64,000 nt of DNA from a candidate division CPR3 bacterium GWF2_35_18 (GTDB lineage: Bacteria; Patescibacteriota; CPR3; GWF2-35-18): the NCBI GenBank assembly GCA_001771135.1, contig MESW01000008.1, positions 87,630-151,629 on the forward strand, written 5' to 3'. A model generated the notes under the pieces. It searched no databases. It was not told where the DNA came from and worked only from the letters and a program-made list of their open reading frames with translations. Position numbers and translations under genes: made by a program. Positions 2,530 through 42,728 of the stretch are shown here, one piece after another. The first letter of the stretch is position 1, and each line of letters begins with the position of its first letter.

Positions 2530-3123
2530 ATGCCCAAGAATTTTTCGTGTAAATATTTTATTTCTTCCGCTGGTTTTACCTTGGTTGAATTATTGGTTGT
2601 GATGGCGATCATTTCAATCGTAACTATTATATCATTTCCTTCTTTCTCAACTTTTTCTCGTCAGCAAATATTGCAATCAGAAGCGGAAAAAATGGCTTCT
2701 CGGATAAAATTGGCTCAATCAAATGCCAGGTCTGGAAATCAGGGAGAAGATGAAACTGAAGAAGTGCAAGGGTTTATGATTGACTTTATAAACGTTGATT
2801 CCACTAATAAGTATTATCTCAAAAAGCATCGTAACGATCTAACAAATCCCTATAGCTATGTGGTGACAGAAGATGAATATACGCTAGATCAAAGTATTAC
2901 GAATATTACTTTTGAGGTTGGAGGAACTGAAGTTACAACTAAGGTATTTTATTTTCAATCTTCTCGCGGATATCTTTCATGTCTAACTGCTGTTCCTGTA
3001 AACGGGAATGATCAAGCTGAATGTGTTGTGTCTCAATTCAAAATTACTTTATTAAATTCCCAAGGAGAGGCTAAATATGTCTATATTGAAAGAGGAGGAG
3101 CTGTTTATGCAAGCGATTCTTAA
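2530..3123 (+). CDS. Pseudopilin / minor pilin (prepilin-type)
   Basis: ...ISSAG|FTLVELLVVMAIISIV N-terminal motif. Confidence 0.7.
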   Translation: MPKNFSCKYFISSAGFTLVELLVVMAIISIVTIISFPSFSTFSRQQILQSEAEKMASRIKLAQSNARSGNQGEDETEEVQGFMIDFINVDSTNKYYLKKHRNDLTNPYSYVVTEDEYTLDQSITNITFEVGGTEVTTKVFYFQSSRGYLSCLTAVPVNGNDQAECVVSQFKITLLNSQGEAKYVYIERGGAVYASDS

Positions 3124-19807: not shown

Positions 19808-20998
19808 TTACTTTAATTTTAGCTTTGCATAATTACGTTTTCCAGCTCTGATAATGGTTCCGTCTGAAATATTAATTTCTTGATGCCAATCGGAAATTAC
19901 TTTATCTTCTACCGTAACAGCAGATTGTTCTATTAATCTTTTAGCTTCCGATTTACTACTTACTAATTTACAATTCAGAATAAGATCCGTAATATTAGTT
20001 TTTTTGGTAGAAATTAAGCATTCCTTAATTTTATTCGGAATGCCTTTTTCTTGAACTACTCTTTCAAAAGTATTTTCCGCCTGTTGAGCTTCTTTCTTCG
20101 AATGATAAAATTCGGTAATTGTAAAAGCTAGTTTTTTCTTCAGATCCATCGGATTTTCTTCTCCACTCTGGAGTTTCTTTCTCATAACCTCAATTTTTTG
20201 AAGCTCTACATCTGTTAATAAAATAAAATAGTCGATGATCATCTCATCACTAATACGCATTAGTTTTCCGTACATATCCTTGGGATTTTCTGTTAAAGCA
20301 ACATAATTACTGTAAGACTTACTCATTTTGCGACCATCGAGTCCATTAATAATCGGTGTTGTGAGAACCCATTTTTTTTTGTTATGATAAAGTTGTTGTA
20401 GATTTCGTCCCATCATCATATTAAAAGTTTGATCTGTTCCTCCAAGTTCCAAGTCAACGTTCATAGCTACAGAATCATATCCTTGCAGAAGTGGATACAA
20501 AATTTCGTGAGTGAAAATAGGGAGATTTTTTTTAATCCTTTCCTGAAACATATCTCGCTCAATAAGTTGCTGGAGTGTAGTTTTGGCTGCAAGCTGAATG
20601 ATTTCAGGCATTGCTAGTTTATCAAGCCAGTCACCGTTTCGTTTAATCGTTATCTTTTTAAAATCGAGGATTTTACTAGCCTGAGACTTCCAGGTTTTAA
20701 AATTTTCTTCAATTTGAGCATCGGTGAGCATCGGTCTTGTAGAATCTCGGCCTGTCGGATCTCCGATTTTGACCGTTCCGTTTCCAATCAAAAGGATCAC
20801 TTCATGTCCAAGGTCTGCAAACTGTTTTAGTTTTCGTAAGACAACACTATGCCCTAGAGTCAAAAGTGAGCCAGTTGGATCTATTCCTAAATATAACTTG
20901 ATTTTTCTTTTTGCCATTAACTTTTTGAGAGTTTCTTTGTCGGGAAGAATCTGAGCTACTCCTCGAGTGAGGACTTCATCAATATTTATATTTTTCAT
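19808..20998 (-). CDS. tyrS: Tyrosyl-tRNA synthetase
   Basis: [13 protein letters not shown] (HIGH-type), KMSKS, C-terminal S4 domain. 396 aa. Confidence 0.9.
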
Positions 20999-21112
20999 TA
21001 TTTTCTCCTTTTTGAATCAGAATTAGTATATCACTAAATTAATTTTCTTTTAAGAATTTTGTTGTTAGAGCCATTTTGTTTTCATCTTTCAAATATTAGT
21101 TTAAAATATAGA

Positions 21113-21172
21113 GCAAGGGTAGGCACACGATACGTGTACGAGCGTAGTTTAATTGCCTACCCTTGCTTTTTT
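21113..21172. terminator. Hairpin between the unknown protein and tyrS (putative terminator/attenuator)
   Basis: 12-bp stem GCAAGGGTAGGC/GCCTACCCTTGC with a 30-nt loop. T6 follows on the plus strand and U-rich sequence on the minus strand. Confidence 0.4.
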
Positions 21173-21184
21173 GTCATTCCTTTC

Positions 21185-22375
21185 TTACATTCGTGAGAAT
21201 CTCGCGTGAGCTTCTTTAGCAAATTGACTCATGATTTTATAGTTTGCGTTATCATGAATTGAGGAGAGACCAAATGGAATTAAGGTTCTTCCTGTTCCTG
21301 GTTTGAGTAGACCAAACCAGATTTCGGGTGGAGAAATTATTTCCATTAATTTCCCTTGTTGTAATATTGTAGCGCATATCTGAGGTTTGATCACTGTAGG
21401 AATTGCTCCTACAGTCGATAACATCTTTTGTAAGCGAATGTTTTGAGGTTTATTTTTGAGGATAAACCGGATAAAACGAACGTTTTTGAAAAGGCGTTCA
21501 GAGATTTCCTCCAATGTTTGTAGATTAAGATTTTCTTGTGGGAAAACCTCAGCAAACTGGTTTCCATAGGTTTTGATTACGGTTTCATTTTGATTATGAC
21601 CGTTATTAATTGTTCTTGAGCTTATTTCTGGATAACTTTGGGTATTACTTAACCAGATGCCAGAAGCTAGAGTGGCGAGAAGATCGTTTTCGGAATCAAG
21701 ATAAAGAGGTTCAGAATACCACTTTAGAGCTTCAGAATTCCAGAAACGATATGAGATTTGAAAGAATTCTGTGAGAGGAACTCTTTTTGATACTTGCCAC
21801 GCAGTAGCGATGAGGGGTTCAAAACCAAAAGCTGTCATCATCAGATGGTTCATTGCGATAGACAGCATTTGCGGTCCTCCGGGGATAGTATAGCCATTGT
21901 TTACAACCGTGATTCCTGTACGAACTTCAGCCGAAAGTCCGATCGTGGTTTGCACTAGATTCGGATGTTCAAAGAGCTCCCTTATGCTAATGAGTATGGT
22001 TATAGAACCAGGAAAGTCCATAAATTGAGGATTTTTGGCGCAACGAACAACATCCCAGAATAGCTTATTTCTAGTAAGCTGAAAACTGGAAGTAGCAATT
22101 GGGGTATTGTCTGTTTCATCGTAGGAGATCCAGGTTAAGAGTTTCATTTCTCGCATTTCGGCTGCGATTTCTTCTGGTGTTTGTCCGGCCAGAATACCAT
22201 GTCCGTGATGTCCATAAACAGATTCAACTATTTGTTTATGATGAGAGGCAAAAAGTTTCAACTCCTGATTTTGAGTTAAGAGCTTGAGAGAGGAAACGGT
22301 ATGGAAATGCATTCCAGATGCGTTTGCTCTTTGAGTTAATCTTTCAATTTGAGTGGTTAAGATTCCAGTACCCAT
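21185..22375 (-). CDS. Hypothetical protein (396 aa) under T-box control; visibly higher G+C than its neighbours
   Basis: Uninterrupted ORF. AAGGAG RBS 8 nt upstream of the ATG. No family recognised by eye. Preceded by a canonical T-box leader. Confidence 0.6.
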   Translation of the reverse strand: MGTGILTTQIERLTQRANASGMHFHTVSSLKLLTQNQELKLFASHHKQIVESVYGHHGHGILAGQTPEEIAAEMREMKLLTWISYDETDNTPIATSSFQLTRNKLFWDVVRCAKNPQFMDFPGSITILISIRELFEHPNLVQTTIGLSAEVRTGITVVNNGYTIPGGPQMLSIAMNHLMMTAFGFEPLIATAWQVSKRVPLTEFFQISYRFWNSEALKWYSEPLYLDSENDLLATLASGIWLSNTQSYPEISSRTINNGHNQNETVIKTYGNQFAEVFPQENLNLQTLEEISERLFKNVRFIRFILKNKPQNIRLQKMLSTVGAIPTVIKPQICATILQQGKLMEIISPPEIWFGLLKPGTGRTLIPFGLSSIHDNANYKIMSQFAKEAHARFSRM

Positions 22376-22454
22376 TATCTTTCTCCTTTTTTTGTATGGG
22401 GATTGGTTTTTACTATCTCTTTTAGAGATAATGACTTTTGTAAATGTGCAAACA

Positions 22455-22870
22455 AAAAAGCTCGTCCTTAAATAGAAAATTTTCTATTTAAGGACGAGCT
22501 TTTAATGAACTCGTGGTACCACCTTTAATTTCAGGTACAAAAAACACTCCAATTATGGAGTGTCCTGCATTTAATCATTTTATACCTGCTTGTTGATTCA
22601 AGTGCTTGACTTTGCAGTGACACTTTAGCCTTTGATAACGGAGGCATTCCGTCCCGCATTTAGTGCGAGAAGCTCCAGAGGGTATTTCGATTTTTTTACG
22701 TTCTGCAGGTTTTCAGGATTCCCTTGCTTTCTAAAAGTTACCGTAAAATTCTACTATTTCTCTTTCATCGCTTTTATACCGAATTGACTTAAATTGAACA
22801 TCAAAATAACGTTAATTCGGAGATATCCAACTACAATCTTATTATTTAATGAAGTTGAATATATAAAATT
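22455..22870 (-). promoter_or_regulatory. T-box riboswitch leader (tRNA-sensing antiterminator) upstream of the 396-aa unknown protein and tyrS
   Basis: Minus strand AAAUUAAAGGUGGUACCACGAG (complement of 22510-22531) against T-box consensus AAUUAGGGUGGNACCGCG. The antiterminator is AAGG[UGGUACC]ACGAG paired with CUCGU-CCUU, a 7-nt bulge. The terminator GCUCGUCCUUAAAUAG/CUAUUUAAGGACGAGC (22460-22499) is followed by U6. The Stem I start GCGAUGAAAGAGAAAUAGUAG carries a K-turn-like GA motif and an AGUA S-turn. Confidence 0.8.
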
Positions 22871-22876
22871 TGAAAT

Positions 22877-22905
22877 ACTATATCGGAATTTTTTCAATAT
22901 GTCAA
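22877..22905 (-). promoter_or_regulatory. Sigma70 promoter for the T-box leader
   Basis: Minus strand TTGACA-17nt-TATAGT: -35 is the complement of 22900-22905, -10 is the complement of 22877-22882. Lies about 100 nt before Stem I, so a nearer TSS is possible. Confidence 0.5.
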
Positions 22906-31635: not shown

Positions 31636-33414
31636 TTATATATTTTTCTTCTCTGAGATCTCTTTTTGGATCTTTTGAATAAATTCTTCAACTTCCAGAT
31701 CATTCATTTTCTCTCCATTACGAAGCCTTAGAGAGATTTTTTTATTCTGTACCTCCCTATCGCCTAAAATCATCATGTATGGTATTTTTTGTGTAACCGC
31801 ATCACGGATTTTGGCTTGCATAGTGTCATCACGGCTATCAATCTCTGATCTAAGCCTGTTTTTCTGTAACTCTTGCGCGATCTCTTGCGCGTATTCTGCG
31901 TGATTAGAAGATATTGGAATGATTTTCACTTGTATTGGAGATAGCCATACTGGAAAGGCTCCAGCATAATGTTCAATCAAAATTCCCAGAGTTCTTTCGA
32001 TAGAACCGGTTAATCCGCGATGTAAGATAACTGGATGCTGCTCTTTCCCATTTTTATCGGTGTAAACAAGTTTTAATCTTTTTCCCATAAATAGGTCAAG
32101 TTGCAAGGTGCTCATTTGCCATTCACGTCCCAAAGAATCTTTAACCATATAATCGATTTTGGGACCGTAAAATGATGCTTCTCCTTGTGCTTTGACATAT
32201 TTTAGCTTGTTATCTTTGATGATCTTCTCGAGGAGTTTTCCGGCCTTTTGCCAAGTTTTGCTGTCGGCAATGTATTTTACCGCATCAGATGGATCTGCTA
32301 GCGATAAACGTACATAATATTCTTTGAGTCCAAAAGCTTCGAACATTTTGGCAACCATTTTGATACAGCGGGCAAACTCCGATTCTATCTGGTCTTCAGT
32401 CATTAAAATATGTGAATCATCAATGGAAAGTGCACGTACTCGCATTAGTCCGGAGAGCTCTCCGCTTTTTTCATATCGATAGCAAGTACCAGGTTCGGCG
32501 ACCCTATAAGGTAATTCACGATAACTTCGAGGGCGGCTTTCAAAGATCATATAGTGATGTGGACAATTCATGGGTTTCAAAACATATTCTTCACCATCAA
32601 TTCCAAAGGGTGCATACATTACGTCTTTGTAATGTTCCCAGTGACCAGTACGTTTATAAATTTCGGAACTGGCTATATGAGGGCAAGTAACATGTTGGAA
32701 GCCGTTTTCAACTTCAAGTTCATACTCATAGTTCAGAATTTCTTTTCGAATAATCGTTCCCTTAGGGGTTAAAAGCGGAAGACCTTTACCGATTGAATCA
32801 CTGATGACAAAAAGATCCAGCTCTTTACCCAATTTTCGGTGATCTCTCTCTTTCGCTTCTTTACGAACATAGAGAAATTGATCGAGCTCTTTTTGTGTGG
32901 GGAAAGCCGTTCCATAAATACGAGTTAACATTTTATTCTTTTCATCACCGTGCCAGTATGCTCCAGCGATAGAAAGCAACTTGAATGGACCGATTTTTCC
33001 GGTTGATTCAACATGTGGACCGGAGCAGAGATCTACCATGGAATTTTTTTGTCCTTCTTTACCTGTCCAGTAAATAGTTATTTTGGAGCCTTTTTTGGCA
33101 ATTTCATCAATCCATTCCTGTTTATATGGATTATCTTCAAAAAGTTTTCGAGCTTCTTTTTCTGAAACCTCCATTTTGGTAATGGGTAGGTCAAGATCAA
33201 TAATCTCCTTCATTCTTTTTTCGATTTTGGGAAAGTCGGATTCGGAAATTTTGTAAGAAGCAGGATCAAAATCATTGTAAAATCCGTCTTCGGTGGCTGG
33301 TCCCATAGCAAGATGGACTTTTGGAAAAAGCTCTTTTACAGCTTGATGCATGATATGTTCTGCCGAATGTCTCATGGCTTGCAGTTCAATTGGATTTTGT
33401 TTTTTTACTGACAT
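31636..33414 (-). CDS. thrS: Threonyl-tRNA synthetase (lacks N-terminal TGS domain)
   Basis: DHRKLGKELDLF...KPMNCPHH...GLMRVRALSIDDSHI are collinear with E. coli ThrRS. Editing-domain RHSAEHIMHQA motif. 592 aa. Confidence 0.9.
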   Translation of the reverse strand: MSVKKQNPIELQAMRHSAEHIMHQAVKELFPKVHLAMGPATEDGFYNDFDPASYKISESDFPKIEKRMKEIIDLDLPITKMEVSEKEARKLFEDNPYKQEWIDEIAKKGSKITIYWTGKEGQKNSMVDLCSGPHVESTGKIGPFKLLSIAGAYWHGDEKNKMLTRIYGTAFPTQKELDQFLYVRKEAKERDHRKLGKELDLFVISDSIGKGLPLLTPKGTIIRKEILNYEYELEVENGFQHVTCPHIASSEIYKRTGHWEHYKDVMYAPFGIDGEEYVLKPMNCPHHYMIFESRPRSYRELPYRVAEPGTCYRYEKSGELSGLMRVRALSIDDSHILMTEDQIESEFARCIKMVAKMFEAFGLKEYYVRLSLADPSDAVKYIADSKTWQKAGKLLEKIIKDNKLKYVKAQGEASFYGPKIDYMVKDSLGREWQMSTLQLDLFMGKRLKLVYTDKNGKEQHPVILHRGLTGSIERTLGILIEHYAGAFPVWLSPIQVKIIPISSNHAEYAQEIAQELQKNRLRSEIDSRDDTMQAKIRDAVTQKIPYMMILGDREVQNKKISLRLRNGEKMNDLEVEEFIQKIQKEISEKKNI

Positions 33415-33587: not shown

Positions 33588-33800
33588 AAAAACTCTCGTC
33601 TGTTTGCAAATAGCCTAAAAAACAAATTGTTAAAAGCTAATTTACAAAGAGACGAGAGTTTTTTCTCGTGGTTCCACTCTTTTTATTCTTGTACCTTTTT
33701 CCGCTGGGTAGCGGTCTCAAAGCAAATAGTTAAATGGTTTCGATTAAAATAAAGCTAAGAAAAGTTTGCATCTAAAAATACTTTTCCTCTCTTGTAGTTT
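33588..33800 (-). promoter_or_regulatory. T-box riboswitch leader of thrS, specifier ACC (Thr)
   Basis: Minus strand AAGAG[UGGAACC]ACGAGA is the antiterminator (complement of 33664-33681), pairing with UCUCGU-CUCUU. The terminator CUCUCGUCU.../...AGACGAGAG (33593-33658) is followed by U5. Stem I carries AGAGA and AGUA motifs. Specifier-loop context AAUCGAA-ACC-A gives ACC as the complement of 33736-33738. Confidence 0.75.
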
Positions 33801-33830
33801 TTTTAATCTACTTGTTTTAACGCTTTGATA

Positions 33831-36868: not shown

Positions 36869-37948
36869 TCAGCTTACTTCTGGGATAAACTGTTCCAGAA
36901 TCTGAGCCATTTTTTCTAGAGAAGAGATAGTTACATATTCATTAGTTGCATGAGCGTTTGCAGTATTTGGTTCCGTCAGAATTACTGGAATTTTTTTGGA
37001 AGTAAAGAATCTGGCATCAGATGCTGCTGGATCACGAGTGATTGAAACTTTTCTTTTCAAAACTTTCTCAGCAATTTCATGATAAATTTTGAGATATTGA
37101 TTATTTTTATCGGTAAAAAATGGATTACCATCTACAGTTTCCTTAGGTTTTATTCCAGTTAAATTTGTAATTTTATTAAAAATTTCTTTTTTTGTGTATT
37201 TGGCTGGATAACGGATATCACATTCAGCTGATGCGTAATCAGCGATTTTGTTACTAGCCTCTCCTCCATAGATTTTTCCGATATTAAAAGAGATGCACCA
37301 ATCTTCTAAGCTTTGTGGGTTTTTAAAAGTTTTACGTAGTTTTATACAGGCTAACATTAATTTATCAATAGCGCTTTCTCCGAGGTATGGTCTAGAAGCA
37401 TGACAAGCGACTCCTTTGGTTTCAAGTGTAAAACTCAAAACTCCTTTTTCTTCAACGATAATATCGAAGTTATGTCCTCCGTCTGGAATAAAGGTAATAT
37501 CGGTTTTGTATTTTTCTTTCTCAAGGAGATATTTGACGCCGTCAAATCCGCCTATTTCTTCATCAGTTGTGAGCATTAGGGCAAAAGAAAGTTTGGGATT
37601 TTGTTGATAAAGTTTTTTCATGATGACCATCATGGTAGCGCAAGCCCCTTTCATATCACCAGCGCCTCGAGCGATCAGCTTATCCCCTTCAATTTTTGGT
37701 TTAAATTGATCCTTCTCTGCTTCGATGACATCAAGATGTCCGTTTAGAATTAGTTTTGGATGTTTTGTTTCTTTAGTTAAGATCATTACGGAGGGTTTAT
37801 CGTTGGAAACGTATTTTTTGATGATCATTTTGGTGTCTTTGAAGTAATCGGCAGCAACATCAACAACTTCTTTGAGTCTTTCAGGTTTACTTCTAATTGA
37901 TTCAATCTGAATAAGTTTTTTAGTTAATTCTAAAATTTCTTTTTTCAT
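36869..37948 (-). CDS. M20-family metallopeptidase (DapE/ArgE-like deacylase)
   Basis: LNGHLDVIEAE and ARGAGDMKGA metal-binding motifs of the M20 family. Confidence 0.75.
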   Translation of the reverse strand: MKKEILELTKKLIQIESIRSKPERLKEVVDVAADYFKDTKMIIKKYVSNDKPSVMILTKETKHPKLILNGHLDVIEAEKDQFKPKIEGDKLIARGAGDMKGACATMMVIMKKLYQQNPKLSFALMLTTDEEIGGFDGVKYLLEKEKYKTDITFIPDGGHNFDIIVEEKGVLSFTLETKGVACHASRPYLGESAIDKLMLACIKLRKTFKNPQSLEDWCISFNIGKIYGGEASNKIADYASAECDIRYPAKYTKKEIFNKITNLTGIKPKETVDGNPFFTDKNNQYLKIYHEIAEKVLKRKVSITRDPAASDARFFTSKKIPVILTEPNTANAHATNEYVTISSLEKMAQILEQFIPEVS

Positions 37949-38837
37949 AATTTTCTCCTTTAATTATTAGACATGCTCCAAGGCATGCTCCATGATCTAT
38001 GTTGGAAATTACGATATCTTTAAAATGGAAAAATTTAAAGGTATTTTTTTTATATTTTTCAATAGCTGGCGTCAGAAATTTTTCAGCTGATTTTTTCAAA
38101 GATCCATTAATAATAATTCTTTCTGGATTATAAAAATATGATACTATTTGAAGAAAATTATATAAATGCTCTGTAAAAATCAAAATCGCCCTTTGTGCAT
38201 CTGGGTCATCATTTTTACTTTTAAAAATTTGTTTGGCATCTTTATTTTGTCTGCTAATTTCTTGGTATATTTTTGCCAAACCTTTTCCAGATAAAAAACT
38301 ATCAATAATTGTTTCTTTGTCATGTAGCTCTGGAACTAAATATTTCATTTGGGATATTTCTCCCAGGTTATTTGAATAACCTCCAATAAGTCGTCCGTGT
38401 GAATAAAAAGATAATCTAATTCCTGTTCCTAAATTTATAAGTACAAAGCTTTCAGTTTTTTTCCCTAGTCCAAAAACTGCTTCTGCTTTTGCCATTGCGT
38501 TTACATCATTTTCTAAGATGATCTTTCTTCTAAATTTCTTTTCCCATTTTTTTACGAGAGGATAATTAACATATCCTCCCAAAAGAGAACTGTAGGTGAT
38601 TTTTCCCTTATTCACTACACAATTGAAACTAATGCCGATAACTTTTACTGAATCTTCAATTCTTTTTTGAATTAATTCTTCTAATATTTCTAAAAATTGT
38701 AGACTATTATGCTTAAATTGATCTGTTGAGATCTTCTCACTATCGATTAGATTATATCTATTATCAAAAGAACAGATCTCGATTTTTGTCCCACCAATGT
38801 CAATTCCAAGAAAATAGGGTTTATTTAATTTTTTCAT
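37920..38837 (-). CDS. ROK/BadF-type sugar kinase-like ATPase
   Basis: YFLGIDIGGTKIEI N-terminal ASKHA motif. Confidence 0.6.
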   Translation of the reverse strand: MKKLNKPYFLGIDIGGTKIEICSFDNRYNLIDSEKISTDQFKHNSLQFLEILEELIQKRIEDSVKVIGISFNCVVNKGKITYSSLLGGYVNYPLVKKWEKKFRRKIILENDVNAMAKAEAVFGLGKKTESFVLINLGTGIRLSFYSHGRLIGGYSNNLGEISQMKYLVPELHDKETIIDSFLSGKGLAKIYQEISRQNKDAKQIFKSKNDDPDAQRAILIFTEHLYNFLQIVSYFYNPERIIINGSLKKSAEKFLTPAIEKYKKNTFKFFHFKDIVISNIDHGACLGACLIIKGENYEKRNFRIN

Positions 38838-39954
38838 AGTAGAAAGGTTTTTTTTCTTTGTCGATATCTAAAAATACTTTTGTGAATTTTCCAAAAGATC
38901 TTTTTAAATCTATTAAATATTTTAAATCGAATGTATTGTTATTACTCAAAACTGGAACACTATGGTACGGTAGTTTATCAATATCTTTACGAATTGGAAT
39001 AATTCCTAGTCTATTGAATTTTGGAGATACAGATAAAGGTAAGCTATGTGGTACTGTTTTTTGAAGATAATCAATATCATCTCTAACCTTCAAATAAGCA
39101 AAATAGCTAAAGATACATTTATGTGTTTTTTCTTTAAGTGAATTTCTTATTTCTGAAGCCTTTGGAGAAATCTCATCGTCAGATAATTTTGTATTATAAA
39201 CATCCATTAATATTTTCTCTTCATTATCAGTAGTAAATACAATTTTATAAATTACCGGAAATACTGAATTGTATTTTTCTAAAAAATCTGTATTTCTATC
39301 TTCATAAAGTTTTTTGTATTCAGAGATTCTTTTATCCATTTTTTCAGAGAAATCAGGAACAGTTTTTTCCATCTCCGATAAATCAATAATATTCACACTT
39401 TTTGATAATTTTAATTGACTGTTTAATTCTTCTAAAAAAACCCTATATGCTATCCAGTTAGCTTTTGGTACTCCAGTAAATGGTCCAAACCCTCCTTCTG
39501 TAAAAAGTGTAATTCTAGCCCCATTCTTGTAAATATTCGTAATAAGTTTGGTGATAACTGAAAGTCTATGTAGAGCAAGGACTTCTCCCATGTCAGGAAA
39601 GATTCTATTGGTTTTCAATGGAACAGGGATTTTAAACGGAAAACCTAAGATTGTAAATTGTATAGGTAGATTTTTACTCGTAAAATATGAAATTCTTTCT
39701 ATCCATTTTTTAATATTAGAATTAATAAATTCCACTGGTCCAAAACGATAGTTTTCATCTTGAAATATTGATAATATCTTTTCTTCAATTGAAGTGCCTG
39801 TAATTTGGGGAATTGGAATTAATATTCTATTTTCTAGAAAATCTGCAATGTCATTGATACTGACTATTTTTTCTTGAATAAAATTGTTCCGTAAATTTTT
39901 ATTTGAAAGCTCTTCAAAGTCAATTGAAGGATAAACATGAGGATTTGATTTCAT
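38821..39954 (-). CDS. Hypothetical protein (377 aa); distant paralog of the 41664-42728 protein
   Basis: Shared core blocks with the other copy: PIQFTILGFPFKIPVPLK / PVPITISFAVGSRMPNLLK and GARITLFTEGGFGPFTGVP / GMQILLFDEATLFAGVIPG. Confidence 0.5.
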   Translation of the reverse strand: MKSNPHVYPSIDFEELSNKNLRNNFIQEKIVSINDIADFLENRILIPIPQITGTSIEEKILSIFQDENYRFGPVEFINSNIKKWIERISYFTSKNLPIQFTILGFPFKIPVPLKTNRIFPDMGEVLALHRLSVITKLITNIYKNGARITLFTEGGFGPFTGVPKANWIAYRVFLEELNSQLKLSKSVNIIDLSEMEKTVPDFSEKMDKRISEYKKLYEDRNTDFLEKYNSVFPVIYKIVFTTDNEEKILMDVYNTKLSDDEISPKASEIRNSLKEKTHKCIFSYFAYLKVRDDIDYLQKTVPHSLPLSVSPKFNRLGIIPIRKDIDKLPYHSVPVLSNNNTFDLKYLIDLKRSFGKFTKVFLDIDKEKKPFYYEKIK

Positions 39955-40733
39955 AAGATTTCCTTAAAAATATTATCTAAATTTTCTAAAACTATATCAG
40001 CTTTTTGTTTTACTTGTGAAGTGGCAGTTCTTAAAGCAACATTAAGTCCAAAATTTTTGTCAAAAATAGGCAGATCATCATCATCATGAGCAAAGACCAT
40101 GATTTCATTTTTTGAAATGTTTAAATGTGTTCCTAAAATAAAAGCCGCTTGTTTTTTAGAAACTCCAGGATTAACAAAATTAATGTTTCCATTGTCATGA
40201 ACAGCGTTTGATTTTATGGGAGGCTTAGGGTTATTAAAAGTTATAATGGCGATTTGAGAAGGATGTTTTCTATAAGCCAACTCAAAAAGATTCTCAATAT
40301 TTCGATAAATTTTAATCTTAATATTTGGAATTGATTCAAGAAATTCGTCTTTTCTATTAGGTTTAATAAATGCATAAAGTTGGGTGTGATTTGGATCCCA
40401 AAAGCCGATAAACTTGATTTCGTTATGATAACGATAAATATAGTTTTCGATTCTTTCAATCTCGATATTTTCTAGAGACGAAAAAAAGAGATTCTTTCTT
40501 TTGCTATCACAAATACAGCTGCCATCAGATATTATTAATGGAGCATTTAATTTTAGGTCATTTAGCTCATGATGAGTTGTTAAGAATCCTCTTCCTGTAG
40601 CTACAGTACAGTAAATTCCTTTATCTTGGATTTTTTTAATAATTTTTTTAGTTTGAATGTCAATTTTTACATGTTTTTGTTTTAAAGTACCATCAATGTC
40701 AAAAACACATAATCTAATATTTTTTTTATTCAT
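39951..40733 (-). CDS. HAD-superfamily hydrolase (Cof-like, subfamily IIB)
   Basis: Motif I LCVFDIDGTL. C-terminal cap and GDDDND-like motif. Confidence 0.75.
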   Translation of the reverse strand: MNKKNIRLCVFDIDGTLKQKHVKIDIQTKKIIKKIQDKGIYCTVATGRGFLTTHHELNDLKLNAPLIISDGSCICDSKRKNLFFSSLENIEIERIENYIYRYHNEIKFIGFWDPNHTQLYAFIKPNRKDEFLESIPNIKIKIYRNIENLFELAYRKHPSQIAIITFNNPKPPIKSNAVHDNGNINFVNPGVSKKQAAFILGTHLNISKNEIMVFAHDDDDLPIFDKNFGLNVALRTATSQVKQKADIVLENLDNIFKEIL

Positions 40734-41517
40734 AATTTATTAATTTTTCAAGAAATAGTGGCAAATCTTTCGGTCCTTCAATCTGTTCTATAGCCTGATT
40801 TTTCAGTTTAGTATTACCTTTTCCAACCAATACGAAATTTTCTGCAAATTCGGCCATGGAAAGATCGTTATCATCATCACCAAAAACCATGATTTCTTTA
40901 GTTTTAATTTTATAATTACTACAAAGTTTCTGAATTCCAGATTTTTTAGAAATATCCTTATTTACAAAGTTTAAAGTATCATCGTTATAAGTAGCGTTAT
41001 ATTGACCATTTAATTCCAACTTCTTTATGGTTTTAATAAATAGCAGAGATGGTTTATCTTTGGGAAGATCTTCAATAAAGCAATTATTATTTGAGTAAAA
41101 TTTATATTTTAAATAAGGATATTCTTTAACAAGATTCTCTTTTCCCTTTTCAGAAATAGCAATATGCAGTGTATGATCTTTAGGGTGCCAATAACCGTTA
41201 AAAATGATTGATTCTCTATATTTTTTAATGAAATCAGCTGCTTGTTCGACTATTTCCTTTTCTAAAGGGGAAATAAAAAGGGTATTTTTGTTATTATCAA
41301 TCATGCAGCTGCCATCCAGAATAACGTATGGAGCGCTATAAGTTATTTTTGATATTGCGTTAATAGTCGTATCATGTCCGCGTCCAGTGGCGACAGTATA
41401 GAAAATATTTTCTTTTTGTAGTTTGTGTATAGTTTCAATTAGCTTTTTTGATATCGGCTTTCCCTTTTCTTTCAAGGTTCCGTCAATATCAAAAACACAA
41501 AGTTTAATTTTATTCAT
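40726..41517 (-). CDS. HAD-superfamily hydrolase (Cof-like), tandem paralog
   Basis: MNKIKLCVFDIDGTLKE. FGDDDNDLSMAE motif. Confidence 0.75.
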   Translation of the reverse strand: MNKIKLCVFDIDGTLKEKGKPISKKLIETIHKLQKENIFYTVATGRGHDTTINAISKITYSAPYVILDGSCMIDNNKNTLFISPLEKEIVEQAADFIKKYRESIIFNGYWHPKDHTLHIAISEKGKENLVKEYPYLKYKFYSNNNCFIEDLPKDKPSLLFIKTIKKLELNGQYNATYNDDTLNFVNKDISKKSGIQKLCSNYKIKTKEIMVFGDDDNDLSMAEFAENFVLVGKGNTKLKNQAIEQIEGPKDLPLFLEKLINYE

Positions 41518-41663: not shown

Positions 41664-42728
41664 TTACTTGCCGAGGTAATAAAATACGAACGGTACACCT
41701 TGTGTACCAAATTCGTTGGGAGAAATTCGAACCGGGATAGCGCCAGGGTGTTCACGTTGGAGCCGATATTCCGGAACAATATGGACGACGAGTCGTCCAT
41801 TCGCATCTCGATAAACCACTGGCATCCCATGATTAGTTAAAACCTTGGTGACATCAATGACCACTCTCTCACTTTTGTCGGTGATGCATGCGTTGATGTG
41901 GTTTTGGAAGCCGAGATCATTTAAGAGTCGTTCAAAGAGCCGGTTCTGTTTGCGGAGTGCCAGAGTGCGTAATACCCGTTCAGACAGAGTGATTGCCGTT
42001 TGCCATGTTTCTTCACCGATGAGCATTCGTAGTACAAGATAGTCTTTGGCTCGATTGGTATAGAGAGGATCCATGGCATCGGGATTGGTCATCCCTGGAT
42101 AACAGCAGGCCATGGCGTAGGTAATGGCATCATGACTAGACATGGGGATATGTTGAGCCTGTTCCCAGGGAAGCATTTCTGGAGTCATGGGGATAATGGT
42201 GATAGGCGCTCCGATTGCAGTTATGATTTGATTGAAATACTGAAGTTGTCTTTCAACATCTTCAGCTACAATTCCAGGAATCACTCCTGCAAATAGGGTT
42301 GCTTCGTCAAAGAGTAAGATTTGCATTCCAGGTTTATAGATTCTTTGGATCTTTTCGTTGATGAAGCGGAATACCCAAGCCATGTGGAGCCAACCTAAAG
42401 TTGGATAAGCAATCAGTTCTTTAAACTTGAGAAGATTCGGCATCCGTGATCCGACCGCAAAGGAAATTGTAATGGGTACCGGTTGCTGTAGATTAATTGC
42501 CTGTTGAATAACATCCCAAAGACGGATTTTTTCATCGTCGGAGAGTTTAATGCAATTTTCAGTGTGTCCGAGGATGATTTTTAGGACAGCCATAGCAGTG
42601 TCCGTTTCCTTGGGTAAATGGTATTGATCCATCCGCCAGCCAAGGAGACTTTCCAAAAAGGCAACTTCGGTTGCCAATGTGGTCATTCCATTGGTGTGCG
42701 GCAGTATGATGGATGGTCGAGCGTTCAC
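41664..42728 (-). CDS. Hypothetical protein (354 aa), GC-richer; paralog of 38821-39954
   Basis: GTG start with AGGAGGTG SD 5 nt upstream. Composition clearly differs from the flanking AT-rich genes. Confidence 0.55.
   Translation of the reverse strand: MNARPSIILPHTNGMTTLATEVAFLESLLGWRMDQYHLPKETDTAMAVLKIILGHTENCIKLSDDEKIRLWDVIQQAINLQQPVPITISFAVGSRMPNLLKFKELIAYPTLGWLHMAWVFRFINEKIQRIYKPGMQILLFDEATLFAGVIPGIVAEDVERQLQYFNQIITAIGAPITIIPMTPEMLPWEQAQHIPMSSHDAITYAMACCYPGMTNPDAMDPLYTNRAKDYLVLRMLIGEETWQTAITLSERVLRTLALRKQNRLFERLLNDLGFQNHINACITDKSERVVIDVTKVLTNHGMPVVYRDANGRLVVHIVPEYRLQREHPGAIPVRISPNEFGTQGVPFVFYYLGK

Follow-up and report, generated by a model that had tools for sequence, protein, structure and literature searches.

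We analysed a 64,000-nt stretch of DNA from the candidate division CPR3 bacterium GWF2_35_18 (hereafter, the window), in which a T-box leader precedes a 396-aa open reading frame (ORF), here called ORF X, and the tyrosine--tRNA ligase gene tyrS, all three on the minus strand. ORF X is hypothetical protein A2X44_02060 of this bacterium (database match), and many groundwater assemblies contain the same locus. In the direction of transcription, the locus reads as follows.

22877-22905, minus strand: sigma-70-type promoter-like site, near-consensus TTGACA-17 nt-TATAGT, 11 of 12 matches (promoter search)
22778-22876, minus strand: about 95 nt of AT-rich 5' leader, from the promoter to Stem I
22672-22772, minus strand: Stem I, comprising a K-turn, the specifier loop with its S-turn motifs AGUA and GAA, and an AG bulge (AGAAA) and distal loop (GGGAAUCCUGAAAAC) that are both divergent (Rfam alignment)
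22682-22684, minus strand: specifier codon, very probably UAC (Tyr), within the 8-nt loop GAA-A-UAC-C (22681-22688); invariant across homologous leaders
22638-22670, minus strand: shortened Stem II and a IIA/B-like hairpin, CGGAAUGCCUCCG, without the GAA...AGUA S-turn of the relatives
22533-22588, minus strand: extended Stem III, whose inner GC hairpin and U6 (CACUCCAUAAUUGGAGUG-UUUUUU, 22541-22566) are terminator-like; the U-run pairs with an upstream A-run
22490-22525, minus strand: antiterminator, with helices A1 (AAGG/CCUU) and A2 (ACGAGUU/AGCUCGU) and the 7-nt bulge UGGUACC (22515-22521) (fold)
22454-22503, minus strand: intrinsic terminator, stem of about 20-22 bp, -31.8 kcal/mol, z = -10.9, followed by U6 (fold)
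22383-22388, minus strand: Shine-Dalgarno sequence AAGGAG, 7 nt ahead of the ATG of ORF X
21185-22375, minus strand: ORF X, 396 aa, diverged from the other members of its very rare GNAT-fold family
21113-21166, minus strand: hairpin just 3' of ORF X, 14-bp GC-rich stem, 27-nt loop, tail CUAUAUUUU
21025-21053, minus strand: promoter-like site before tyrS, extended -10 type, TTAAAA-17-TATACT with TG
19808-20998, minus strand: tyrS, tyrosine--tRNA ligase (TIGR00234, 345 bits)

Judging from its anatomy, the leader is a genuine transcriptional (class I) T-box, and it is very probably specific for tyrosine; the anatomy was observed directly, and from it we infer the response to tRNA. The Rfam T-box model RF00230 matched positions 22487-22777 on the minus strand from end to end (model positions 1-219) at 100 bits (E = 7e-21; gathering score 93), and this was the only above-threshold T-box of the window. 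An earlier note, made from the letters of the window, had called a canonical T-box riboswitch at 22455-22905. The full-length Rfam match confirms the T-box itself, the coordinates correctly run from promoter to terminator, and the GA motif, AGUA motif, T-box sequence (AAAGGUGGUACCACGAG) and UGGUACC bulge that had been listed were each found in the RF00230 alignment. The K-turn or GA motif at the base of Stem I (GCGAUGA...UGGAGC) and both parts of the S-turn (AAUAGUA and GAAAUACC) aligned to the model, and in an independent minimum free energy fold all 8 nt on the 3' side of the specifier loop (GAAAUACC, 22688-22681) were unpaired. The mutually exclusive terminator with its U-run was also borne out, in that the predicted antiterminator and terminator folds overlap, the 3' half of the antiterminator (CUCGUCCUU) being common to both, and the terminator ends in a U6 tail. 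Because the terminator is far stronger than the antiterminator (-31.8 vs. -8.1 kcal/mol) and reuses this segment, the switch would be off by default. The bulge UGGU would pair with the ACCA-3' end of an A73 tRNA. Taken as a whole, the leader folded far better than shuffled sequences (z = -6.4).

We compared this leader with those of related loci, which are cited below by their L numbers. We fetched 80 coding loci of close TyrRS relatives and sought T-boxes in them by regular expression, Rfam and an nhmmer profile; a homologous T-box was present in only five (L010, L011, L028, L042, and L066). A lineage-specific DNA pattern search of the metagenome yielded seven further T-box loci (L095-L101), among them three new lineages. 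The nine T-box lineages are thus the window, L010/L101, L011/L095, L028, L098, L042, L066, L097, and L096/99/100. Across six homologous leaders, the A1 and A2 helices of the antiterminator covary (A-U to G-C; AG/CU to UU/AA), and the terminators differ in sequence, all folding at -35 to -42 kcal/mol with U-runs. A GC-rich, terminator-like Stem III hairpin with U6-7 occupies the same position in L010, L011, L028, L042, and L066 as in the window. RNA polymerase may pause at this inner hairpin of Stem III, or transcription may be attenuated there a second time.

The specifier is very probably UAC, for tyrosine. All leaders read (G/A)AA-N-UAC-Y, with UAC invariant in the nine lineages and the preceding base either A or, in L011/L095, U. 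Two registers had been left open in the earlier note: AUA (Ile), by analogy with the thrS leader of the same window, and UAC (Tyr), one nucleotide on. The first is ruled out, since the thrS-type register reads UUA in the homologous leader of L011/L095 and AUA elsewhere. The second is supported by the invariance of UAC, by the presence of tyrS downstream in the window and in 6 of 6 related lineages whose contigs are long enough to show it, and by L066, where no more than about 5 nt separate the T-box terminator from a tRNA-Tyr(GUA) gene with A73. This was the only tRNA-Tyr among the five tRNAs found in a scan of 65 related loci. The position of UAC also agrees with codon placement in the 8-nt specifier-loop class, where the codon begins one nucleotide after GAA (PMC4574755). 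The Staphylococcus aureus glyS T-box, of this class, has the same GAA-N-codon-N layout and so the register that gives UAC here, but its codon is followed by the purine G112, where the present lineage of leaders has C or U.

It is very unlikely that the leader instead answers tRNA-Thr (ACC/ACU) or tRNA-Ile (AUA). ACC/ACU, one nucleotide past the UAC register and two past AUA, is as conserved across all leaders as UAC, which counts against the tyrosine assignment; AUA shares the register of the thrS leader (GAA-ACC-A), and the expected purine follows the codon in no register. Yet AUA becomes UUA in L011/L095, and in the fold an ACY codon would leave zero unpaired nucleotides between codon and helix. 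The bulge UGGU implies A73, which argues against threonine, since the thrS T-box of the same window (specifier ACC) has UGGA. The downstream tyrS genes and the tRNA-Tyr gene of L066 also speak for tyrosine. We sought tRNA-Thr genes in the related loci for their discriminator base and found none. The thrS T-box itself lies at 33645-33827 on the minus strand, upstream of thrS (31636-33414); it scored 56 bits, below the gathering score, carries ACC in a 7-nt loop (GAA-ACC-A) and the bulge UGGA, and is missing most of Stems II and III.

The earlier description of the Tyr leader as canonical was right as to a transcriptional T-box but overstated, given the pyrimidine after the codon, the short Stem II and the off-consensus distal platform. 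A pyrimidine directly follows the codon (C in the window, C or U across the homologous leaders), so that the conserved purine, which is said to hold for all T-boxes (PMC4574755), is missing. Within its family, moreover, the window leader is the most diverged, its AG bulge and non-consensus distal loop reading AGAAA and GGGAAUCCUGAAAAC vs. AGAGA and GCGGUUGGUGAAAGC in the relatives and its Stem II being shortened and without an S-turn; docking of the tRNA elbow could therefore be impaired. Stem I folded alone was no more stable than shuffled sequences (z = +0.35). The pyrimidine and the divergence weigh against a working Tyr switch; the divergence and the Stem I fold would suit a decaying relic, in which the terminator still works, relief by tRNA has been lost and ORF X is silent or dependent on leakage. 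We consider such decay very improbable. The RF00230 score is still above the gathering threshold; the K-turn, specifier loop, T-box sequence, bulge, antiterminator and near-consensus promoter are intact; and ORF X is intact at 396 aa in a genome of 35% GC. As for the pyrimidine, the homologous sequences suggest a lineage-specific deviation that is insufficient to exclude T-box membership, and this broken ‘conserved purine’ rule is of interest for models of T-box/tRNA recognition.

A close counterpart in architecture is the Bacillus subtilis tyrS T-box (class I, UAC, RF00230), which has the same arrangement of Stem I K-turn and S-turn, Stem II, IIA/B and Stem III, the same 7-nt bulge with UGGU matching A73, a competing terminator and a link to tyrS. 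The window leader differs in its host (CPR3/Patescibacteria), its 8-nt specifier loop, its pyrimidine in place of the conserved purine, its shortened Stem II and divergent distal platform, and its extended, terminator-like Stem III. It differs also in its first regulated gene, the uncharacterised GNAT-like ORF X, with tyrS 186 nt further on behind a hairpin. Literature searches for T-boxes in Patescibacteria or the candidate phyla radiation (CPR) turned up no paper describing them in the library searched. As a riboswitch, the leader belongs to a known class and is unremarkable apart from the quirks of its lineage; what is new is its target, a GNAT-fold family.

ORF X matched nothing in Pfam, NCBIfam, PHROGs or PDB sequences. 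The first six members of its family likewise had no match in Pfam, NCBIfam or PDB sequences, nor did the family profile in PDB, and searches of plasmid and phage collections with ORF X and its relative P0004 were negative. HMMER, run exhaustively against 1.84 billion representatives, returned only three distant full-length relatives, and two profile searches enlarged the family to about 10 proteins. When the four closest members were used to scan metagenome loci, 148 pattern matches came up but no relative. ORF X aligns end to end with its relatives, with 22 invariant columns.

The AlphaFold model of P0004 (pLDDT 80.9, pTM 0.81) gave a GNAT fold, and that of ORF X, although poor (pLDDT 48), gave the same fold matches. 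Thus the earlier statement that the gene belongs to no recognisable family holds for sequence families, but the protein is not fold-less, given the GNAT fold in its relative's model. The fold matches span about 125-165 residues and none covers the whole length, and the proteins of the family, about 390-430 aa long, carry an extra domain and have no GNAT match in Pfam. In these models, the family is a new two-part architecture built on the known GNAT fold. Its most conserved stretch, N-x-P-x-N-I-x-x-Q...G-x-x-P, corresponds to residues 308-326 of ORF X (N308, Q316, G323, and P326) and appears to lie in a strand-loop-helix at the position of GNAT motif A.

For seven loci of ORF X relatives, DNA was to hand. 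Without exception, the five P0004-subfamily loci (L089, L090, L091, L093, and L094) have a short ORF with a run of Phe codons ahead of the X homologue. The leader peptides (MESLVLSTVRFFFNPKFGGVLW, MKKIKNTNFFFFFHPTFCGAIF, MKIAPNNFWFFFFNPTRAGS, MRNLRKFENNFFFFTPLYRGAIFFKLKI, and MSTILKTFFFFFFNPSNGGAGF) contain runs of FFF to FFFFFF followed by N/H/T-P, on low-GC metagenome contigs. The leader ORFs overlap alternative CCCC...GCGGGG hairpins, and a terminator of the form GCCCCGCG..GCGGGG-U6-7 follows just upstream of the X homologue. These Phe-rich elements are at the following positions.

L089, 905-1040: Phe-rich attenuator
L090, 4845-4985: Phe-rich attenuator
L091, 380-495: Phe-rich attenuator
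L093, 2478-2622: Phe-rich attenuator
L094, 408-545: Phe-rich attenuator

By their sequences, these leaders are classical Phe attenuators. The element of L090 matched Rfam Phe_leader (RF01859) with 49 bits (E = 6e-6; gathering score 55). With attenuators of that type (pheA/pheST), the five loci share 3-6 consecutive Phe codons, overlapping hairpins and a terminator. They differ from the enterobacterial Phe_leader in their low-GC hosts and in scoring 49 bits at best, below the cut-off of 55, and the element is absent from the window. Phe attenuators sense the charging of Phe-tRNA as the T-box senses that of Tyr-tRNA, but through the ribosome rather than through an RNA that binds tRNA.

In 6 of the 7 relative loci, the X homologue adjoins N-acyl-amino-acid deacylases, in some cases together with NSAR/OSBS racemases. 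M20 deacylases of the ArgE/DapE type stand beside it in L089, L090 (two copies), L093, and L094, and two AstE/AspA deacylase genes flank it in L092. A racemase of the NSAR/OSBS family is present in L090 (TIGR01928, 239 bits vs. a cut-off of 200.65) and, as a copy 68% identical to it, in L091, and a PaaK-like CoA ligase is present in L090 and L093. The 715-aa ORFs of L092 and L096, considered as possible relatives of each other, had no BLASTP similarity. Together, the Phe attenuators and the deacylase and racemase neighbours indicate that the family has been coupled time and again to the state of aromatic aminoacyl-tRNAs and to the chemistry of N-acyl-amino acids. Since Phe-charging control is found in five of five loci, regulation by aromatic aminoacyl-tRNA would be a property of the family and not of the locus. 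The earlier idea of a Tyr- or Ile-linked salvage enzyme survives in its tyrosine half, which the leaders and neighbours of the relatives favour, but not in its Ile half, whose register is excluded.

Our overall reading, to which we assign a probability of about 0.6, is that a tyrosine-starvation T-box drives a GNAT-fold acyltransferase for the salvage or detoxification of aromatic amino acids. Transcription would start from the promoter at 22905-22877, and Stem I would offer UAC (22684-22682) to the GUA anticodon of tRNA-Tyr. If the tRNA is uncharged, its ACCA-3' end would pair with the bulge UGGU and stabilise the weak antiterminator (-8 kcal/mol) against the terminator (-32 kcal/mol). RNA polymerase would then read into ORF X and, in some transcripts, probably on into tyrS. 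ORF X, which has diverged from the rest of its tiny GNAT-fold family and probably arrived by horizontal transfer, would act as an acyl-CoA-dependent N-acyltransferase on an aromatic amino acid, here tyrosine and possibly D-Tyr. Its induction when charged tRNA-Tyr is low would salvage L-Tyr or remove a competitor of L-Tyr. For this specific acyltransferase chemistry, the chances are somewhat short of even.

Several properties of ORF X and its surroundings speak against such a role. In the family alignment, ORF X reaches no more than 20-24% identity to its relatives, and it is without several of their conserved motifs (VPRYQV, TAGIHFST). The canonical Q/RxxGxG/A acyl-CoA motif (GNAT motif A, the pyrophosphate loop) is missing, the sole M20 gene of the window (36869-37948) is 15 kb away, and no NSAR was found in the 64-kb window. 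The missing motif, together with a similar size, is what ORF X shares with aminoacyl-tRNA-dependent transferases (Fem/FemX-like proteins or peptide synthases), for which Tyr-tRNA would be the donor; this would be the ‘novel tRNA-associated function’ that the earlier note had entertained. We regard it as the least probable of the readings considered here. The Fem-like fold scores were no better than those of ordinary single-domain GNATs, and it would make no sense, as regulation, to induce an enzyme that uses up Tyr-tRNA just when Tyr-tRNA runs short. The deacylase, racemase and CoA ligase neighbours of the relatives suggest chemistry on free N-acyl-amino acids instead.

How ORF X came to lie between a Tyr T-box and tyrS can be judged from the same slot in the relatives. 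The gene order PBP1A (divergent) - tyrS - recG is kept in most of the 80 loci, with a PBP1A-tyrS gap that varies between about 250 nt and over 3.4 kb. We rejected a T-box acting directly on tyrS in the relatives, as all homologous Tyr T-boxes have other genes next, and these cargo genes sit between leader and tyrS wherever the contig reaches tyrS. In most relatives with tyrS on the contig, the last cargo gene ends within 50 nt of it, which implies one operon; L011 is an exception, with a gap of about 200 nt. The cargo consists of a methyltransferase and MetE-like (Meth_synt_2) pair in L010/L101 and L097, and of a 360-aa methyltransferase-like protein with a Cys/Met pyridoxal phosphate (PLP) enzyme in L028 and L098. 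Other Tyr T-boxes are followed by proteins of 173, 293, and 304 aa with no family named, by a tRNA-Tyr gene, or by a 323-aa protein with DUF3604 and ASCH. Two of these cargo operons persist at 77-80% (L010 vs. L097) and 59-60% (L028 vs. L098) amino-acid identity, which shows them to be maintained and not accidental. Among relatives without a T-box, the gene directly upstream of tyrS is a Biopterin_H aromatic hydroxylase (Phe to Tyr) in three genomes (L015:3240-3950, L055:3257-3970, and L075:2394-3170) and an M20 deacylase in L012 and L030. The T-box-bearing loci are scattered across a rough TyrRS neighbour-joining tree, and we therefore discarded the idea that they form one clade. From these gene orders, accessory genes of this clade, tyrosine-related or not, have docked repeatedly between the Tyr leader and tyrS, downstream of the divergent PBP1A gene.

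A docking place of this kind also accommodates the main rival to our reading, namely that the T-box serves tyrS and that ORF X is an unrelated gene, brought into a variable hotspot by horizontal transfer and riding along as a passenger that plays no part in tyrosine metabolism. The breadth of the PBP1A-tyrS interval fits this, as does the variation of the cargo by lineage behind homologous Tyr T-boxes. Plainly unrelated genes (AbiEii toxin, PAP2, NYN, and SIMPL) occur in the slot, and the methyltransferase and MetE-like pair, the PLP Cys/Met enzyme and the DUF3604 cargo have no evident link to tyrosine, which detracts from our reading. The composition of ORF X is modestly atypical, in keeping with lateral acquisition: its coding-strand GC skew (-0.147) is the lowest of the 48 window ORFs, and its codon-usage distance (0.162) is high for its length. 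The earlier remark that the gene is GC-richer than the genome is correct (39.5% vs. a window mean of 35.0%), but this is a weak sign, since 6 of the 48 ORFs equal or exceed it. The family is scattered over contigs of 31-47% GC. A mere passenger is nonetheless unlikely, because ORF X relatives are under Phe-charging control in 5 of 5 loci, cargo operons are retained behind the Tyr T-box at the identities given above, and a Phe hydroxylase occupies the slot in three genomes.

Our reading of ORF X as a tyrosine-starvation acyltransferase can be extended to the whole family, although we do so tentatively and with the odds clearly against the full picture. ORF X and its roughly 10 relatives would then form an unrecognised GNAT-fold family for aromatic-amino-acid salvage, by N-acylation that starts a D-to-L conversion or by recycling of N-acyl-Phe/Tyr. 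The family would be under two unrelated sensors of tRNA charging (Phe attenuators and the Tyr T-box), and the Tyr leader of Patescibacteria would be a docking platform for diverse genes under tyrosine starvation (tRNA-Tyr, methyltransferase and MetE-like, PLP enzymes).

The D-to-L conversion has a precedent in a pathway of GNAT, NSAR and M20 enzymes (bioRxiv 10.1101/2022.03.03.481873). The relatives of ORF X adjoin NSAR/OSBS (TIGR01928) and ArgE/DapE-type M20 genes and, given their GNAT fold, would take the position that the succinyltransferase (succinyl-CoA:D-amino-acid N-succinyltransferase, a Geobacillus enzyme) has in that gene set. The ORF X family differs in its length, its extra domain and its lack of a GNAT match in Pfam, and ORF X itself stands alone in the window.

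Alternatively, ORF X might detoxify D-tyrosine, or a tyrosine antimetabolite that blocks TyrRS, and not salvage anything; uncharged tRNA-Tyr would then be an alarm for TyrRS inhibition. We think disposal of this kind rather unlikely. In its favour, NSAR is missing from the window, so that no complete D-to-L route can be made out there, and T-box-controlled protection against D-Tyr is described for B. subtilis tyrZ (PMC9437257, citing Williams-Wagner 2015). This defence is a conceptual precedent for our main reading too. The tyrZ case resembles our locus in that a Tyr T-box switches on an accessory function guarding tyrosine charging, and not the housekeeping synthetase. However, tyrZ encodes a second TyrRS, whereas here the product is a GNAT-fold protein with no MarR partner seen, and the link to D-Tyr is deduced. 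The consistent pairing of the relatives with deacylases and racemases fits a return to the L-amino acid better than disposal.

Between ORF X and tyrS lie 186 nt, which hold the hairpin and the promoter-like site listed above. The hairpin has a poor U-tract and is possibly a weak terminator or an RNA stabiliser. It is present in a single copy in the window, and we rejected it as the end of a repeated or mobile element. Read-through from ORF X into tyrS is nevertheless plausible, since most relatives have their last cargo gene directly against tyrS.

Scavenging is believed to be how CPR/Patescibacteria obtain their amino acids, amino-acid biosynthesis being thought absent from them. The T-box acts as a functional label, marking an unannotated protein as one that is wanted when charged tRNA-Tyr is scarce. 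Combined with the Phe leaders of the relatives and their deacylase and racemase neighbours, this label turns an orphan gene into a specific, testable biochemical hypothesis. If it is true, charging-controlled supply or protection of tyrosine would add to what is known of the CPR lifestyle, and, if the docking-platform reading is true, a tyrosine-acquisition regulon would be exposed in organisms thought to have no amino-acid biosynthesis.

Some further observations concern the T-box loci of the relatives. The cargo of L010/L101/L097 and of L028/L098 appears related to methionine and not to tyrosine. In L066 (2650-3061), the Tyr T-box (UAC) is followed by tRNA-Tyr(GUA) at 2977-3061, a 304-aa ORF and tyrS, and the T-box appears to control the gene of its own tRNA ligand. 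A cargo protein of about 300 aa recurs beside tyrS (L066:3063-3977, L097:9101-9805, and L070:2902-3375), with the motifs ..FFGxG.MT.. and ..VADQHA.TN... On account of class Ic-like motifs, we considered it as a paralogue resembling TyrRS/TrpRS, which Pfam and PDB sequence searches did not support. The Tyr T-box of L042 has, about 640 nt ahead of it, a weak Phe_leader-like match (1935-2055; 37 bits, E = 0.0065), which is itself upstream of a 176-aa ORF.

Elsewhere in the window, a low-GC (27-29%) cluster at 36869-41517 on the minus strand encodes the M20 peptidase, a ROK kinase, a DIT1_PvcA family protein and two HAD hydrolases. Its composition suggests that it was acquired, and it is possibly a tyrosine-related set, DIT1_PvcA being a family of tyrosine isonitrile/dityrosine biosynthesis. 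Finally, a 354-aa ORF at 41664-42728 on the minus strand has the highest GC content of the window (45.8%) and no Pfam match, and its coding GC skew, like that of ORF X, is negative.

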